Both the position numbers and the translations under genes were made by a program. Shown here one piece after another: positions 122 to 35,123 of a stretch of DNA of 35,253 nt. The DNA lies in contig JAHHIK010000089.1 of the NCBI GenBank assembly GCA_019358935.1, positions 1 to 35,253 of the forward strand, read 5' to 3'. This DNA is from Tolypothrix carrinoi HA7290-LM1. GTDB lineage: Bacteria; Cyanobacteriota; Cyanobacteriia; Cyanobacteriales; Nostocaceae. The notes below the pieces were generated by a model that was given only the letters and a program-made list of their open reading frames with translations, was not told the DNA's origin and did no database searches. The first letter of the stretch is position 1. The number at the start of each line of letters is the position of its first letter.

Positions 122-484
122 ACTATTCAGTTTTTCTAGAAGTGCATTATGGTTAATGCGGTCGAAGCACTTGGCAATGTCAGCATCCAGCACGTATTTG
201 GCTTTTTGCGCGATTACCGTATGAATTGCCAAAGATTGCATCATCAGATGAGCGACAAGAGTCTAAAACCGTAACTGTTAGGCTCGAATCTTGCTTCCCA
301 TTTTGGTTCTAGGGCTAGCTTAACCAAGCATTGAACAGCCCGGTCGTGCATTGTTGGTATTCCGAGAGGGCGCTTATCCTCCGTTCCTGGTTTGGGTATC
401 CAGACTCGGCGGGTTGGACGCACATGAAGGTTAATGCTCAGGTTTCTGGTAAGTTTCAGCCTTTGTTTGGGTGTTAATGACTTA
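122..484 (-). pseudogene. Group II intron reverse transcriptase/maturase, internal fragment, frameshifted
   Basis: Minus strand reads KSLTPKQRL...RPTRRVWIPKPGTEDKRPLGIPTMHDRAVQCLVKLALEPKWEARFEPNSYGFR, then after frameshifts and stops ...AQKAKYVLDADIAKCFDRINHNALLEKLN. These are the RT1-RT3 motifs of group II intron RTs. No YADD motif or intron domain V is present. Confidence 0.9.
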
Positions 485-933
485 ATACCATTTTGTTAAA
501 TACCTGCTACAGATAATGCTTGGATAATGTAATCCCAAGCTGCCAAAGAAGTGATGACATCAACAGTCAGCGCTTCCAGAATTTTCACTACCCTAGTTTT
601 TAACTCGTTGAGATTGTCAAAAAGCTGCCAAGGAAGCTGGCGCTTGATATATCCCCAAAGTCTTTCAATTGGATTGAGTTCTGGACAGTTAGGAGGCTGA
701 AATAGCAAAATAATATTATTAGGAATTTGTAAATGTTTGGCTTTATGGAAAGACCCATTATCTAATTGTATGATATGTAAGTCTTGGGGAAAAGCCTGAG
801 AAAACTGGTTCAAAAATCTCCCAAAACACTCAGTATCTAAGTGAGAAAATTCATAAAAGAAACTTTCTCCTTTCAATGGTTCTATGACACCATACAAATA
901 ATAGGCTTGTCGCTCCCACTGTACTAACCCTAA
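485..933 (-). mobile_element. IS630-family element, 3' half only (DDE_3 transposase C-terminus, stop at 496)
   Basis: GLVQWERQAYYLYGVIEPLKGESFFYEFSHL...IIQLDNGSFHKA...FQPPNCPELNPIERLW is the IS630 DDE signature. The element ends a few bases after the stop, at a TA inside the RT. The first ~10 residues of ORF 496..963 come from the neighbouring IS5 end. Confidence 0.9.
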
Positions 934-1106
934 GAGGATGTTTGAAAAGTCGAAGCAGGTCAAAAATCATGCGAGTCGTCGAATCATAATACGTATCATC
1001 GCAATATAAATAAAAGTTTCCGAAGTTTCTGGTAGACGTTCATAATCCTTACTTAAACGCCGACACCAATTAAGCCAACCAAAAGTTCGCTCTACAACCC
1101 AGCGCT
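934..1106 (-). mobile_element. IS5-family (IS1031-like) element, right-end remnant
   Basis: Minus strand 1107-967 reads [47 protein letters not shown] terminal IR-like GAGGATGTTTGAAAAGT at 934-950 abuts a TAA/TTA target at 931-933. Confidence 0.9.
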
Positions 1107-1108
1107 TA

Positions 1109-2362
1109 GTACATGTCACCGCAAAAAAGGGTCGGAAATAGAGGAGGATATTTTTTGTAGGGTGGCATAAAAATCAGACATGCAAGGACGTATCTCAAGT
1201 ATCCGGGTTGAAATAACTGGTGAGCAGCAAAATGTACTAAATAGTTGGTTACGTAAGTCAACAACCCCAATGGGGTTGGCAAAACGTGCCCGTGCAATAT
1301 TAATGTTGGCATCAGGAGAAACTTTCAGTAAAACCAGTCAGTATGTTGATATAGGAGAACGTCACTTGAGAAAGTGGGCAAGACGGTTTATAGACCAAGG
1401 AATCGAAGGATTGTATGATGCGAAACGACCGGGGCGACCCCCGGTTTTTTCCCCCTCAAGTCGCATTGTACCTAGTTAAAATTGCTTGTGAGCGACCCGA
1501 TATGATGAAGCGTTCCTTATCGCAGTGGGATTGTACAGAATTAGCGCATCAAGTAGTAGCAGCAAAAATTACAGGTAGCATTTCTGCGTCTACTGTTCGA
1601 CGAATTTTAAATAGTCATAAATTAAAACCTTGGCGACATCATTTGTGGTTATCACCAAAAGCCCCAAGAGATGAAGCGTTTGTTAAAAGCATAAAAGAAA
1701 TTAGTTCTTTATACACTCGACCATTAAATCCGGATGAAATGGTGTTGTGCGTTGACGAGAAAACCAACTTACAACCCCGACCACGTAAATCCAAAACTCT
1801 TCCAGCTAAACCAGAACTACCTGTAAGAGTTGAACATGAATATGAACGTAAGGGGGCACTTAATTTGTTCGCTGCGTTTGATACTCGCACGGGTCAAGTA
1901 TGGGGGCAGACTTATGAGCGTAAACGTCAAGAAGAATTTATTGTATTTCTTGAATATTTGGACAAGCAGATTCCCCCGTCAATTACAACAATTCATGTGG
2001 TATTAGATAATTTGAGCGTACACAAAGGTAAAAAAGTCCAAGCTTGGTTAACCAAACACCAGCGTTTTGTATTTCATCATCCTCCCGTCCATTGTTCATG
2101 GATGAATCAAGTTGAACAATGGTTTAGTATTTTGCAGCGAAAACGTCTAAAAATCTCTGATTTTGCTGATAAAAAAGCTTTAAGCGAACGTTTAGAAGCT
2201 TTTATTTCTGAGTGGAATACGAAAGCACATCCTTTTGATTGGAGTGAAAAATCAACCCTGAAAGCTATCGCAAAGTGCAAAATTCCAGATTCCAATTTTA
2301 CGACCCAAATAGACCTTGCGATCGCAGCTTAATTTCCGCACCTTTTTTATGGTGACCTGTAC
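1109..2362 (+). mobile_element. Complete IS630-family insertion sequence
   Basis: Imperfect 31-bp terminal IRs (GTACATGTCACCGCAAAAAAGGGTCGGAAAT and ATTTCCGCACCTTTTTTATGGTGACCTGTAC) are flanked by TA at 1107-1108 and 2363-2364. Confidence 0.93.
1180..2332 (+). CDS. IS630-family transposase, split into an HTH ORF (1180-1479) and a DDE ORF in the +1 frame (to 2332), joined at T6C5 1445-1455
   Basis: ORF A has RARAILMLASG...LRKWARRF...GLYDAKRPGRP. ORF B has VLCVDEK, VVLDNLSVH and PVHCSWMNQVEQWF. The frames overlap at GTTTTTTCCCCC. Confidence 0.9.
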
Positions 2363-2389
2363 TAAGCGAATCACTTCCGCTTCTCGGCA

Positions 2390-2585
2390 TTGAAGAAAGG
2401 CAGAGGGCAGGAGGCAGCTATGCTGAAGGAGCAATCGGATGGGGATTCAAACCCCAACCGATTGAATCCACCGTGTAGACGGTGGGGTTTTATACCCAGT
2501 TGGCTCCAGCCAGAAGGCTGAATCAAAGACATAATTTATACCTTATGCCCTCTGCCCTCTGCCTTCTGCCTTCCGCCGAAGGCGG
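2390..2585 (-). mobile_element. 196-bp non-autonomous element, copy 1 (IS200/IS605-like boundaries)
   Basis: Identical to 2987-3182. On the minus strand it follows TTTAT, ends TTCAA and has no target duplication. It has imperfect terminal inverted heptamer arms and internal hairpins. Confidence 0.88.
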
Positions 2586-2986
2586 ATAAAAGCTTCTGGA
2601 TTTCGCGTTTGTTGAGACATAAACATGAATCGTTCATTGCTCTGTTGAGGCTGCAACAACGATTCAGGCAATGCCCACATCTGAAGGAACTTTTGATTAA
2701 AGACCGATACGTTAAAGTTCTGATTTACAACTATAATTCCATCAGCTGTAGACTCCAACGTTGCTTGCAGCAAAGATAGAGTTTGGGCTTGTTCCTGTTC
2801 TGCACAGCAGCGTTCTGCTTGTAAGCGTTTTGCTTGGGTGACATCCCGAATCACCATTACTGCCGATTTATCGCCTTTTGGCAGTTCGGCAGAGTTGCCA
2901 GATATTTCTAAAATTAAAGAGCGATCGCCGATTTGAAACTCGTATTCTGCTGCTTCATATTCTCCCTTTAGCACCTTGACATCAGG

Positions 2987-3182
2987 TTGAAGAAAGGCAG
3001 AGGGCAGGAGGCAGCTATGCTGAAGGAGCAATCGGATGGGGATTCAAACCCCAACCGATTGAATCCACCGTGTAGACGGTGGGGTTTTATACCCAGTTGG
3101 CTCCAGCCAGAAGGCTGAATCAAAGACATAATTTATACCTTATGCCCTCTGCCCTCTGCCTTCTGCCTTCCGCCGAAGGCGG
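2987..3182 (-). mobile_element. 196-bp non-autonomous element, copy 2
   Basis: Identical to 2390-2585. Precise removal rejoins TTT TAT | CCT GAT in frame. Confidence 0.88.
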
Positions 3183-3530
3183 ATAAAACTCTGCATCAAC
3201 TGTTATCCCTGCTTGCTTTAGCGGTAACAAGTCAGTTAGTTTGACATTTAGCACCAAAATGTGAGGTTTGTTTACCAGTTTGTCGAAAGCTGCATTGCAC
3301 CATTGCACCTTTCCATCTCGACCTGTCCAGACAATAGCATCAGCGATCGCCCCTAGTGCTAGTTCCATTTTGCCCAGAGTCGCCCGTAACTGCCTGCGAT
3401 TGTCAAGATAAATTATCCGGCAATTATGTAACGCCGAAATAATATTTACAATATTTTGTGATAAAAATTTGAATAATCCACCGCTAGGAGGATGAACGGC
3501 TGCTAAATATTAAACCTGAAATTGCAAAAA

Positions 3531-3641
3531 TTGGGCATTGGGCATTGGGCATTGGTCCGGCAGTGCCCCATGCCCCATGCCCCATGCCCCATGCCCAATG
3601 CCCCATGCCCCAATGCCCCATGCCCCATGCCCCATTACCCA
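3531..3641. repeat. STRR heptamer arrays in inverted arrangement: (TTGGGCA)n then (TGCCCCA)n
   Basis: Tandem 7-mers just downstream of the TPR gene; the gene's stop codon lies at the array edge. Confidence 0.9.
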
Positions 3642-4315
3642 TTTTTAAAAGAGTGATACATTGTATCTTCCGGGGCAAGACGAATAGCTGTGTTATAATC
3701 TGCCATTGCTTTGAACTTATCGCCGATTTCATAGTAAACTTGACTACGCCAAAGGTAAAATAGGGGATTGTCTGGATGAAGATTAATCGCTTGGGTATAA
3801 TCTTCAAGTGCTCCGTTTGTGTCTTGTAGATTTTGCCAACGTAAGTTAGCGCGTTGGCTGTAGAGATAAGCATCGTCAGGAAAAGCACGAATTGCATTAT
3901 CGAATAGAGCGATCGCTTTATTCGTATCTCCCTGCCGATTGAAGGTATGAGCTTGTTTAACGTATGCAGCAATAATACTCTGTTGATTACCAGATATAGT
4001 CGAGGCTACAACCGTCTCAGGCTTTTCTTGTTGTGTATCCTCTGCAATTTTTGCCGCAGATTTACCCAGATTAAGCGCTTTACAAATTAAACTAATAGTC
4101 GAGCCAAAGGCTAAAACTGTTCCAGCTACAATCGCAATAGCTGCCAAATCCCCATTACTGTTAGTACTGTTTTGAAAGCCTTTGATATCAATACCCTGAG
4201 TAGTTGTCGGTTGATGAACTTCTGTGGTGGTTAGCAGTGGTGCGTTGTTAAGAATTTTTTTCTTGATAATTTGCTTACCCGAGGCATTGTATAATCCTTT
4301 GATGTCGCTAATCAT
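3635..4315 (-). CDS. Tetratricopeptide-repeat protein with one predicted transmembrane segment
   Basis: Hydrophobic LAAIAIVAGTVLAFGSTISLIC followed by TPR units (AIALFDNAIRAFPDDA, ALEDYTQAINLHPDNP, AMADYNTAIRLAPED). Confidence 0.88.
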   Translation of the reverse strand: MISDIKGLYNASGKQIIKKKILNNAPLLTTTEVHQPTTTQGIDIKGFQNSTNSNGDLAAIAIVAGTVLAFGSTISLICKALNLGKSAAKIAEDTQQEKPETVVASTISGNQQSIIAAYVKQAHTFNRQGDTNKAIALFDNAIRAFPDDAYLYSQRANLRWQNLQDTNGALEDYTQAINLHPDNPLFYLWRSQVYYEIGDKFKAMADYNTAIRLAPEDTMYHSFKNG

Positions 4316-5796: not shown

Positions 5797-5933
5797 AGGG
5801 AATGGGGAATGGGGAATGGGGAATGGGGAATGGGTAATGGGTAATGGGTAATGGGGAATGGGGAATGGGGAATTAGCAATTAGCAATTACCAATTACCAA
5901 TTACCAATGCCCAATGCCCAATTCCCAATTCCC
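5797..5933. repeat. STRR arrays (GGGAATG/GGTAATG)n followed by inverted (CCAATTA/CCAATGC)n
   Basis: Tandem 7-mers fill the intergenic space. Confidence 0.9.
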
Positions 5934-5938
5934 TATTA

Positions 5939-10718: not shown

Positions 10719-10853
10719 ATGAACCACATTATTTTTATCTCACGCAAAGTCAAGCCAGCGCCGTGCGGGGGTTCCCCCCCGTTGAGGCGACTGGCGCGCA
10801 GAGGCGCAAAGGAAGAAATAATGAACCACATTATTTTTATCTCACGCAAAGTC
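10719..10853. repeat. 33-bp perfect direct repeat (10719-10751, 10821-10853) with a small palindromic repeat unit between
   Basis: ATGAACCACATTATTTTTATCTCACGCAAAGTC occurs twice; 10752-10796 belongs to the repeat family seen at 4528-4740. Confidence 0.9.
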
Positions 10854-12518: not shown

Positions 12519-12692
12519 CTAAAAAATATCCTTGCGCTTTTGTAACCAGAAAGCAACAGAATTTGGTAGGGTGCGTTATGGACGGAACGTCCTAACGCAC
12601 CGAAAATCTGGGATGGTGCGATCTTCCTACGGCATAACACACCCTACAAAACTAAAAAATATCCTTGCGCTTTTGTAACCAGAAAGCAACAG
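12519..12692. repeat. 41-bp perfect direct repeat of the ABC gene 3' end (12519-12559, 12652-12692) bracketing a REP doublet (12566-12647)
   Basis: CTAAAAAATATCCTTGCGCTTTTGTAACCAGAAAGCAACAG occurs twice. Between the copies is GTAGGGTGCGTTA...TAACACACCCTAC, an inverted relative of 33324-33399. Confidence 0.9.
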
Positions 12693-29344: not shown

Positions 29345-29416
29345 ACTTTTTCTATGAGATATTCCTAGTTATTAATAGAGGAATATCAACTCTCGTTCCG
29401 GACAGACTCTGTGAAA

Positions 29417-29541
29417 ATTGGGAATGGGTAATTGGGAATAGGTAATTGGGAATGGGTAATTGGGAATGGGTAATTGGGCATCGGGCATTGGGCATAGATT
29501 TGGCTTTATTCCCATTACCGATTACCGATTACCGATTACCC
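29417..29541. repeat. STRR arrays (GGGAATG/GGTAATTG, GGGCATT, CCGATTA)
   Basis: Tandem 7/8-mers in inverted arrangement within a divergent intergenic region. Confidence 0.85.
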
Positions 29542-33323: not shown

Positions 33324-33399
33324 GTAGGGTGTGTTAGCCTTGCTAACGCACCATCCGATATTTTCGGTGCGTTAGGACATTCGTCCTAACACACCCTAC
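33324..33399. repeat. GTAG REP doublet (REPIN-like)
   Basis: GTAGGGTGTGTTAG...TAACGCACC-spacer-GGTGCGTTAG...CTAACACACCCTAC. Confidence 0.85.
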
Positions 33400-33489
33400 A
33401 AAAATTTGATTTTTCAGTTCCGTTTGGGGTAAATCATGTTTAACGAATACAGATTTTTTGGAAGTCTACCAGAAAACGCCAGCACCTAA
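33375..33489 (+). repeat. Diverged duplicate of 34143-34257 (REP half, upstream region and first 17 codons of the AAA_35 gene)
   Basis: MFNEYRFFGSLPENAST* at 33436-33489 versus MFDEYRFSGSLPENASTY at 34205; both are preceded by TTTTCAGTTCCGTTTGGGGTAAATC. Confidence 0.92.
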
Positions 33490-33558
33490 GATATGTAAAA
33501 TTTCGGCAGAAATCTTTGTTGCTTGCTTTTGAACTTTTAGTAGCTGATAATTTTAACT

Positions 33559-33789
33559 ATGAACTATCGAAATTACATCACAATTGAGCCAAATAAACGC
33601 GGTGGCAAGCCTTGTGTGCGCGGCTTGCGAATTACGGTTTATGAAGTGCTTGAGTATTTAGCTTCCGAGATGACCGAAGCAGAAATACTCGACGACTTTC
33701 CCGATCTGACGCGGGAAGATTTAAAAGCCTGTATTGCCTATGCCGCTGATCGTGAGCGTCGGTTGATGATTGCTCCAACGCCCACATGA
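33559..33789 (+). CDS. DUF433 family protein (putative antitoxin)
   Basis: ITIEPNKRGGKPCVRGLRITV...EILDDFPDLTREDLKACIAYA. Confidence 0.93.
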   Translation: MNYRNYITIEPNKRGGKPCVRGLRITVYEVLEYLASEMTEAEILDDFPDLTREDLKACIAYAADRERRLMIAPTPT

Positions 33790-34118
33790 AACTACTTTTT
33801 GACGAAAACTTGTCTCCCAAGTTGCCGCGTCTTTTGGCTGACCTTTTTCCAGATTCGGTTCACGTCCGAGATGTCGGTATGAAAGCAACTGACGACCCAT
33901 TGGTATGGGATTATGCTAAAGATAATGGCTTCATGATTGTCTCGAAAGACGCGGATATGCACGACCTCAGCTTGGTGTTTGGGAATCCGCCGAAGGTTGT
34001 TTGGCTACGGCTTGGAAACTGCTCAACATCGCAGGTTGAAAATTTGCTGCGTCGAGATGTTGACGTTATCAAATTATTTTATGAAGACGAGTATGTATCG
34101 CTGCTTGCTTTATCATAA
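33786..34118 (+). CDS. DUF5615 PIN-like protein (putative toxin)
   Basis: MKLLFDENLS, DDPLVWDYA, IVSKDADM and PPKVVWLRLGN; ATGA overlap with the DUF433 gene. Confidence 0.92.
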   Translation: MKLLFDENLSPKLPRLLADLFPDSVHVRDVGMKATDDPLVWDYAKDNGFMIVSKDADMHDLSLVFGNPPKVVWLRLGNCSTSQVENLLRRDVDVIKLFYEDEYVSLLALS

Positions 34119-34204
34119 CGCCGCAGCGAACAAGTTGCTTACGGACATTCGTCAATCACGCACTATACAATAATTTTATTTTTCAGTTCCGTTTGGGGTA
34201 AATC

Positions 34205-35123
34205 ATGTTTGACGAATACAGATTTTCCGGCAGTCTACCAGAAAATGCCAGCACCTACGTCACACGGGAAGCTGATAAAGAATTATATGAATCGCTGACA
34301 GCAGGGAAGTTTTGTTATGTTTTAAACTCCAGACAATCGGGAAAATCTAGCATTCGGGTGCGAACTATGCGACGGTTGCGAGATGCTGGGGTGGAATGTG
34401 CTGCGATTGATTTATCTGCGGGTGGTGTGCAAAATGTGACACCCGAACAGTGGTATGTGGATTTGATTGATAATTTAATTGAAACTTTTGCTTTAGATGT
34501 AGATTTAGCAGAGTGGTGGGTCAAGAATCAATTACACTCAGAAGTAACAAGATTTCGCAAGTTTATTGAAGAGGTTTTGTTAGTTGAAGTTCAAGAAAAT
34601 ATTGTTATTTTTATTGATTAAATTGATAGTGTTCTCAGTCTAAAATTTTCCACAGATGATTTTTTTGCTTTAATTCGCGCTTGTCACAATCAACGGGTTG
34701 ATAATTCTGATTATAATCGTCTCACTTTTTGTTTGTTGGGGGTAGCTTCACCGAGCAATTTAATTCAAGATAAGCAACGCACACCTTTTAATATTGGCAG
34801 AGCAATTAATCTCAAAGGTTTTCAATTGCATGAAGTCGAACCTTTAAGGAAGGGTTTAGAGGAGAAATTTGCAGACTCCCAAGAAGTGATGCAGGAGATA
34901 TTAAATTGGACGGGAGGACAACCATTTTTGACGCAGAAATTGTGTCAATTTATGGTGGAATATGATAAAGATAATCTCCGTTCAGTTGAGCAGGTAGCAA
35001 AAGCAAGGATAATTGAAAATTGGGAATTGCAAGATGAGCCGGAGCATTTACGCACGATTCGCAGCCGAATTTTACGGGATGAGGAACGAGCCGGATATTT
35101 ATTAGATTTGTATCAGCAAATTC
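34205..35123 (+). pseudogene. AAA_35 ATPase-domain gene with a nonsense mutation and 3' truncation
   Basis: YVTREAD, NSRQSGKSS, then IVIFID*IDSVLSL (TAA at 34619-34621 where Glu is expected). The same frame continues to TPFNIG and WTGGQPFLTQKLC, then switches to IS sequence at ~35124. Confidence 0.92.

Follow-up and report, generated by a model that had tools for sequence, protein, structure and literature searches.

A short, gene-free DNA element that inserts immediately 3' of the tetranucleotide TTAT and ends in TCAA appears to have multiplied recently in the genome of Tolypothrix carrinoi HA7290-LM1. It is likely a palindrome-associated transposable element (PATE) that is moved as single-stranded DNA by the IS200/IS605-type Y1 transposase (TnpA) of another element, a reading to which we assign a probability of roughly 0.87. 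A PATE is the most likely identity because the element's guides match its cut sites by the rule known from IS608 and because its left-end motif is common to a clade of autonomous IS605 elements. The initial annotation of this DNA had proposed a recently active, non-autonomous IS200/IS605-type element with the guides AAAA and GAAT, and the covariation of guides and sites, together with the left-end match to the autonomous clade, upholds that proposal.

The window, meaning the whole 35,253-nt stretch of contig JAHHIK010000089.1 that was analyzed, holds two copies of 196 bp, both on the minus strand. They lie at 2390-2585 (copy 1, its boundaries set by the 37 full copies of the genome and by empty alleles) and at 2987-3182 (copy 2, placed by sequence and empty alleles), and, as had been annotated, they are identical, share one orientation and are offset by 597 bp. 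The TTAT next to each copy (2586-2589 for copy 1, where it is the left cut site, and 3183-3186 for copy 2, both on the minus strand) belongs to the host and not to the element, since it is kept in the empty alleles of three congeneric genomes (L266-L268). In these alleles, TTAT runs straight into the 3' flank at both sites, which bears out the annotated lack of a target duplication.

What received both insertions (2386-3368, minus strand) is a gene remnant, the 5' portion of a gene for a multi-PAS sensor, recognized by matches to PAS_7 and PAS_4, the latter below the cut-off. The junctions annotated for excision, EFY|PDV and AFI|A, match the empty alleles of the three congeners, but the whole gene is not restored by them. 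Homology to the congeners' multi-PAS protein of about 720-790 aa, the orthologues of which (723-786 aa) are open frames within the congener loci examined, ends 4 nt past copy 1; beyond this break lies an IS630-family element, and no remainder of the gene turned up elsewhere in the genome. Because of this break near the IS630-type element, the host gene is dead irrespective of the insertions. The IS630-type element (1103-2368, plus strand), with 37-nt inverted ends and a DDE_3 open reading frame at 1415-2332, is not part of the mini-element; a second DDE_3 fragment (496-963) adjoins it.

Across the genome (7.96 Mb, 184 unordered contigs), there are 37 full copies of 195-196 bp in nine near-identical variants, besides three 141-bp copies and two that are interrupted by contig ends. 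All of the full copies end in TTCAA, and TTAT stands immediately 5' of every one (37/37), with 3' flanks that are unconstrained. The annotation was thus right to expect a fixed T-rich motif 5' of each copy but gave it as TTTAT, which can be ruled out as the target since TTAT is the only invariant part. The base preceding TTAT is T in 21 copies, A in 9, G in 7, and C in none; at this position (-5), C is never seen (0/37, p = 0.004) and T is over-represented (p = 0.03), which points to a weak preference. No 5- or 6-bp target duplication occurs among the 37 copies. TTAT also follows 2/37 copies, at which, without empty alleles, it is indistinguishable from a 4-bp duplication. Another empty state, for the site on contig C119, is seen in three paralogues in the same genome that are 96-98% identical. 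The focal 196-bp family is missing at E <= 1e-15 from all 10 congeneric genomes searched, so the burst looks recent and limited to the strain.

The elements are active mutagens in that 20/37 copies interrupt long open frames; their orientation relative to the host genes is not biased (15 sense, 5 antisense, p = 0.36). With only 196 bp and stops in all six frames, the element is too short to encode a transposase. On contigs C52 and C42, copies are joined head to tail, with TTCAA fused directly to the left end. These junctions point indirectly to transposition through a single-stranded circle, the putative route here.

Read along the minus strand, copy 1 begins with a 13-nt terminal hairpin (2573-2585), the exact pairing of which differs between two predictions. 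It is followed by the left heptamer arm, (GGCAGAR)n (2541-2572), which is predicted to pair with the right arm at 17 positions with P >= 0.8, and by an internal TTAT (2531-2534), a putative alternative left cut site right after which the 141-bp form begins. The left guide motif, GGG-TAT-AAAA-CCC (2485-2497, with the guide AAAA at 2491-2488), has a marginal loop-closing stem (P 0.37-0.52) and abuts the left-end hairpin (2469-2484, P 0.97), the putative TnpA-binding site. Over 68 loci, the outer pair of this hairpin is A-T in 41, G-C in 24, G-T in 1, and unpaired in 2. The right-end hairpin (2432-2464, P 0.98-1.0) carries the guide GAAT (2448-2445) in its 7-nt loop, and this guide covaries with the terminal 4-mer. 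Next comes the right heptamer arm, (YTCTGCC)n-like (2396-2429, from sequence and fold), which makes up most of the 51-nt right linker, and then the terminal TCAA (2390-2393), the right cut site, common to all full copies. In copy 2, identical at an offset of 597, the guides lie at 3085-3088 (AAAA) and 3042-3045 (GAAT), also on the minus strand.

The motifs AAAA-CCCCA (from 2491) and GAAT-CCCCA (from 2448) and both core hairpins are present just as first annotated. The ends had been described as inverted heptamer arms; inverted arms are there, but they are subterminal, with the 13-nt hairpin preceding the left one. Terminal inverted repeats are absent, and the guide hairpins are central. Folded as DNA, the element strand has z = -8.5, and none of 200 shuffles was equally stable. 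An alternative fold that pairs the left CCCC with the right GGGG was dropped (P = 0).

The linkers of the focal element, 94 nt on the left and 51 nt on the right, are filled with heptamer arms; in seven families, the distance from guide to cut site is 69-94 nt on the left and 49-62 nt on the right. The linkers of IS608 measure 19 and 10 nt (PMC3597680). Right linkers peak at 48-52 nt across different arms (34/54 calls), which hints that their length could be under selection. The arms are likely carried as cargo and, as modeled, would pair and set the cut sites side by side. If paired, however, the arms would hold both cut sites some 20 bp away from the core, in contrast to IS608, which speaks against the PATE reading. 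One 141-bp copy stands alone at C2:120237 and two lie in tandem on C52; they start at the internal TTAT, and the C52 pair has the pattern expected from re-insertion at that site. Since these copies have no left arm, the left arm is dispensable. The armless short relatives L042, L057, L078, and L100, which have the usual left spacing (11 nt), also exist without it, so a role of the arms in joining the termini, as annotated, is not supported as a requirement.

In IS608, base 1 of the guide pairs with base 2 of the cut site, base 2 with base 1, and base 4 with base 4. More generally, IS200/IS605 transposition relies on a 4-base guide that pairs with a 4-base cut site (PMC6006769), and the guides of IS608 are AAAG and GAAT (PMC3597680). 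An iterated search with 13 seeds found 115 related loci in the Tolypothrix genome, namely the focal family (41 loci), 11 other multi-copy families, and 36 single loci. The ends of the 12 multi-copy families were placed where the flanks diverge; in the resulting table, read by eye, the IS608 rule predicts the left site from the guide in 11/12 and the right site in 10/12. The pairs seen, which cover seven cut-site words, are AAAA or AAGA with TTAT, AAAG with TTAC, CAAG with TGAC, GAAG with TCAC, GAAT with TCAA, CAAT with TGAA, and AAAT with TTAA. When the sites were permuted across families, fits averaged 2.9 on the left (0/200,000 permutations as good) and 2.4 on the right (1/200,000), but these p-values overstate the case because the families are related and the table was scored leniently, by eye and in knowledge of the rule; we rest the argument on the pattern rather than on these values. 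The lenient fits concern right ends in three families (2/4, 3/4, and 1/3 copies) and left ends in two (2/3 and 1/2).

A boundary caller that is blind to the guides was run on 115 parsed cores, from loci mostly in other genomes and some of them redundant, with the focal family counted once and rows without a call dropped. At the right end, it paired GAAT with TCAA in 31/37, AAAT with TTAA in 6/7, and AAAA with TTAT in 3/4; at the left end, AAAA went with TTAT in 31/40 and AAAT with TTAA in 4/6. The poor classes were AAGA with TTAT (3/10) and AAAG with TTAC (1/2). Taken together, the sequence comparisons support the view that AAAA would guide TTAT and GAAT would guide TCAA in the focal element.

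Some elements break the rule, namely four in which the right loop is inverted and two with CAAT. One family also has the guide CAAA, which predicts TGAT, and its actual end is TGAC. A five-copy family (G000:C6:15052-15252, C70, C151, C67, and C119) runs from TTAT to TTCAA with GAAT absent and the left hairpin decayed, and two of its copies are identical over 200 bp. At L019, L059, L073, L102, and L229, the right hairpin has kept its position but its 7-nt loop is inverted, so that the guide lies on the other strand. Among the elements with inverted or rearranged right loops, L019, C52, and C2 end in the word of the left guide, and L059 and L073 do not. Selection of the right end may be less strict, with a guide supplied in trans or the left guide taking over. 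A canonical right end, in which the guide stands at the hairpin foot, is found in some sister families.

The source of the transposase was sought among Y1 genes. Ends of the element's type are found at none of the seven Y1 genes in this genome, although an IS605 element on C133 has the same two guide words as the focal element. The genome has five TnpAs of the IS200/IS605 type. Comparison of 60 Y1 loci from 10 relatives brought out a clade (L145, L116, L150; support 0.994) with a left end like that of the mini-element: cut site, about 10 nt, GGG, guide, CCCC, and hairpin. Judged by eye, this motif fits 26/30 clade loci; two of the others have a mismatch, and in two it is displaced by insertions. 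The Y1 protein of the clade matches PF01797 and is a relative of ISHp608 TnpA, and L145 itself, with its divergent tnpA and tnpB, is a complete IS605 element. The sister mini-element C73 and a tnpB-only element (C110:14355, minus strand) carry the hairpin of the clade letter for letter. The left end thus likely descends from an IS605 clade of the L145 type, as far as sequence can tell.

The annotation had called for a tnpA/tnpB element with matching ends, and the L145 clade supplies the left one, but the looped right end occurs in no autonomous element in this genome or at the 60 Y1 loci of the 10 relatives. In the clade, the right guide sits at the hairpin foot and the guide-to-cut-site distances are about 16 and 27 nt, compared to a looped guide and 94 and 51 nt in the mini-element. 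The clade is present in 38/150 genomes of the host family and in 3/4 congeners. Its co-occurrence with strong element matches over the 150 genomes is not significant (10/28 vs 28/122, p = 0.23). A TnpA of the clade was not found in this assembly (best identity 45%), which has no contigs under 10 kb, so its absence from the strain does not follow. Viral contigs gave 0 and 1 matches, and the right end at L106 is canonical. We regard the L145 clade as the best candidate helper, with a probability somewhat better than even.

Several loci touched by this search merit mention. One complete mini-element adjoins the Y1 locus L108. At its left end, the tnpB-only element at G000:C110:14355 (minus strand) combines TTAT with AAAA, as the L145 clade does. 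On G000:C148 (about 400-1800, minus strand), an element that shares the left-end motif (here TTCAT and the guide GAAA) and has a canonical right end encloses an antisense open reading frame, the start of which we take to be IscB/IsrB-like. Also, the autonomous IS605 element L150 (G150:C14, about 2146400-2146830) has inserted precisely where a repeat structure with GGGTGTR arms ends in TGAC.

Under the proposed mechanism, TnpA supplied in trans by another element, for which the L145 clade is the best candidate, would bind the two central hairpins. The guide AAAA would fold back and select TTAT, and GAAT would select TCAA. One strand would then be released as a circle, which would insert again on the 3' side of a different TTAT. 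Flexible spacing between guide and cut site has been shown for another TnpA (10.1101/2023.03.14.532601).

The same chemistry could be provided by another kind of Y1 nuclease, either REP-associated (RAYT) or of subclass 1.2, in which case the element would be a REPIN-like unit. Besides one RAYT, the genome encodes two Y1 proteins that have the subclass 1.2 motif Y---Q-HH and lie between REP-like sequences, and the right-guide exceptions suggest looser right-end selection. We nevertheless consider this improbable, as the core profile has no match at the RAYT or the two subclass 1.2 loci, the left end corresponds to that of a class 1.1 IS605 clade, and guide-target covariation over seven 4-mers fits TnpA-IS200. 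In REPs and REPINs, the REP hairpins are paired and inverted, have a GTAG/GTGG guide at their foot, and also flank a RAYT gene; the element has two different hairpins. The two subclass 1.2 genes (G000:C51:17950-18294 and C46:32571-32882) are flanked on both sides by inverted REP-like repeats with copies elsewhere in the genome, and the available portion of PMC6006769 lists no REPs for subclass 1.2 Y1. The stable fold (z = -8.5) could instead point to an RNA module, in which the element would mainly provide TnpB or IscB with a guide RNA acting in trans, its 3' flank being the guide, and a TnpB-type guide-RNA source had indeed been suggested in the annotation. Its terminal TCAA is that of tnpB right ends, the genome has 51 matches to the TnpB domain, and the PATEs of Geobacillus often encode guide RNAs (10.1101/2023.03.14.532601). 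This reading is very improbable and the suggestion is not supported at the sequence level, given that Rfam has no match over the element and that the core profile matches none of the genome's tnpB loci at E <= 1. Only GAATCCCC and TCAA are in common with the 46 tnpB 3' regions listed, and the hairpin downstream in those regions is missing; the unbiased orientation relative to host genes also speaks against it.

Least of all do we credit a classical MITE moved by a DDE transposase through its inverted arms, or a repeat spread by recombination. The arms are inverted, TTAT also follows two copies, and the five-copy family without a right guide, with its identical copies, could reflect gene conversion. 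However, the arms are not terminal, differ wholly among families with related cores, and on the left can be missing, while the empty alleles are without a duplication and the TTAT target is one-sided. The terminal inverted repeats and target duplications of DDE-type MITEs are thus both lacking. A PATE moved by an IS200/IS605-type TnpA is the reading we carry forward.

PATEs were defined in Haloquadratum (PMC3119063), and the term has also been used in PMC4810608 and for Geobacillus (10.1101/2023.03.14.532601). Like the PATEs described in these sources, the element has no transposase and makes no target duplication, inserts after a short motif, has, on the left at least, a hairpin related to IS605-type ends, and forms multi-copy families; its copies appear to move though an intact matching transposase is unseen, and other small repeats are inserted in hairpins. 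It differs from what those sources describe in that its hairpins and guides lie in the middle, at a distance of 50-95 nt from either cut site, its linkers are inverted heptamer arms, its right guide is in a loop, and no guide-RNA scaffold was found. With the IS608/IS605 group, in which the cyanobacterial L145/L116/L150 clade comes closest to it, it shares the pairing of guide and cut site, the right guide GAAT, and the left motif GGG-NNN-guide-CCCC-hairpin (PMC3597680, PMC6006769), but unlike that group it has neither tnpA nor tnpB. Cyanobacterial MITEs such as Nezha, Muzha, MaeMITE, and those of Wolk 2010 and Fewer 2011 (PMC3184786), as well as groups 1-11 of Anabaena sp. 90 (PMC3542288), resemble it in size (130-250 bp), stable folds, insertion into genes, and host group. 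Unlike the mini-element, Nezha is described there as bounded by terminal inverted repeats and as having direct repeats on its flanks. The MITEs of Anabaena sp. 90, compared here by description, are filed as type II with an unknown transposase (PMC3542288). Some members of the present family may already be listed as MITEs, without the PATE mechanism.

The family extends well beyond the focal element. At least 12 multi-copy families occur in this genome, each with heptamer arms, and the core recurs among them with wholly different arms. Some match is present in 119/150 genomes of the host family, though many are to the arms only, and matches at E <= 1e-14 occur in 28. The core pattern was found at 68 loci in the genome collection, nearly all of them, by title, from Nostoc, Scytonema, Brasilonema, Rhizonema, Calothrix, Iphinoe, and their kin; the exceptions are one Crocosphaera bin and three loci in an Acetobacteraceae bin. 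It was not found in 115 genomes of the other families of the order or in the 5 same-family genomes in that sample. Plasmid C of the laboratory strain Trichormus variabilis ATCC 29413 carries a member with TTAT, AAGA, GAAT, and TTCAA. Matches on Klebsiella and Escherichia plasmids were dropped as members since they cover just 34-37 nt of an arm. What emerges is most likely a large family in the Nostocaceae with central guides, linkers built of repeats, and a looped right guide, that is, a new form of PATE. The PATE class itself is known, and it is the heptamer-armed, loop-guided form that is most likely new: the searchable literature holds no description of PATEs with STRR arms, and the accessible text of PMC4390886 and PMC11448079 has nothing on the family. 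These families are a natural data set on TnpA targeting, with seven guide-matched words, linkers several-fold those of IS608, and a looped right guide. Short AT-rich inverted heptamer repeats with a remnant guide motif midway were seen at L216, L221 (G001), G000:C167, C55, C99, and C2:96859, and these are possibly decayed or minimal members.

The arms of the mini-element are heptamers of the STRR type. STRR heptamer repeats and SDR elements were reportedly described in Nostoc by Elhai in 2008; to our knowledge, neither has been tied to a Y1 transposase, and the origin and spread of STRRs in Nostoc-type cyanobacteria are still open. In this one genome, on which all of the STRR counts rest, 44/46 GGCAGAR arrays of at least three units lie beside a guide motif, compared to 4/260 for GGGCAT-type and 7/244 for GGGAAT-type arrays. 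A second method counted arrays inside the 115 loci and found 32/40 for AAGGCAG, 15/24 for ACACCCT, and 12/24 for ACACCCC. Over all heptamer arrays, 197/3903 (5%) are inside these loci, and of the 15 commonest STRR types, each with 43-77 arrays, only 0-1 apiece. Facing array pairs carry a guide motif in 10/168 cases vs 1.6 expected, by a detector that largely missed the focal family. STRRs as a whole, then, are mostly found outside the mini-elements, and a general STRR vehicle is ruled out. The annotated idea of a vehicle for STRR spread fits GGCAGAR and, in part, GGGTGTR types but not the common ones. This would make the elements dispersers of some STRR types and not of STRRs in general, and a testable carrier that accounts for 44/46 of this genome's long GGCAGAR arrays.

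Meers et al. (10.1101/2023.03.14.532601) showed that a TnpA is able to cut at a site farther away and thereby capture outside DNA. By analogy with this reach, it is plausible that the arms originated by capture of flanking repeats. A more tentative proposal, with the odds leaning against it, is that an undescribed PATE superfamily of the Nostocaceae uses inverted STRR arms as working parts. The arms would pre-pair the cut sites, allow linkers of 50-95 nt and a looped guide or one guide for both ends, and disperse GGCAGAR and GGGTGTR repeats. If true, part of the cyanobacterial STRRs would have a first concrete mechanism of dispersal, and single-strand transposition would gain a new type of end architecture.

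Other repeats were seen in passing. At L011, L013, L047, L074, L080, L098, and L273, short SDR-like repeats are nested in the hairpin loops and linkers of family members. The window also has facing or tandem STRR arrays of the GGGCATT and GGGAATG types, without the core of the element, at 3529-3643, 5798-5937, and 29416-29495. Positions 12519-12692, 10719-10853, and 33389-34257 hold exact direct repeats of 41 nt and 33 nt and a 100-nt repeat at 90% identity.
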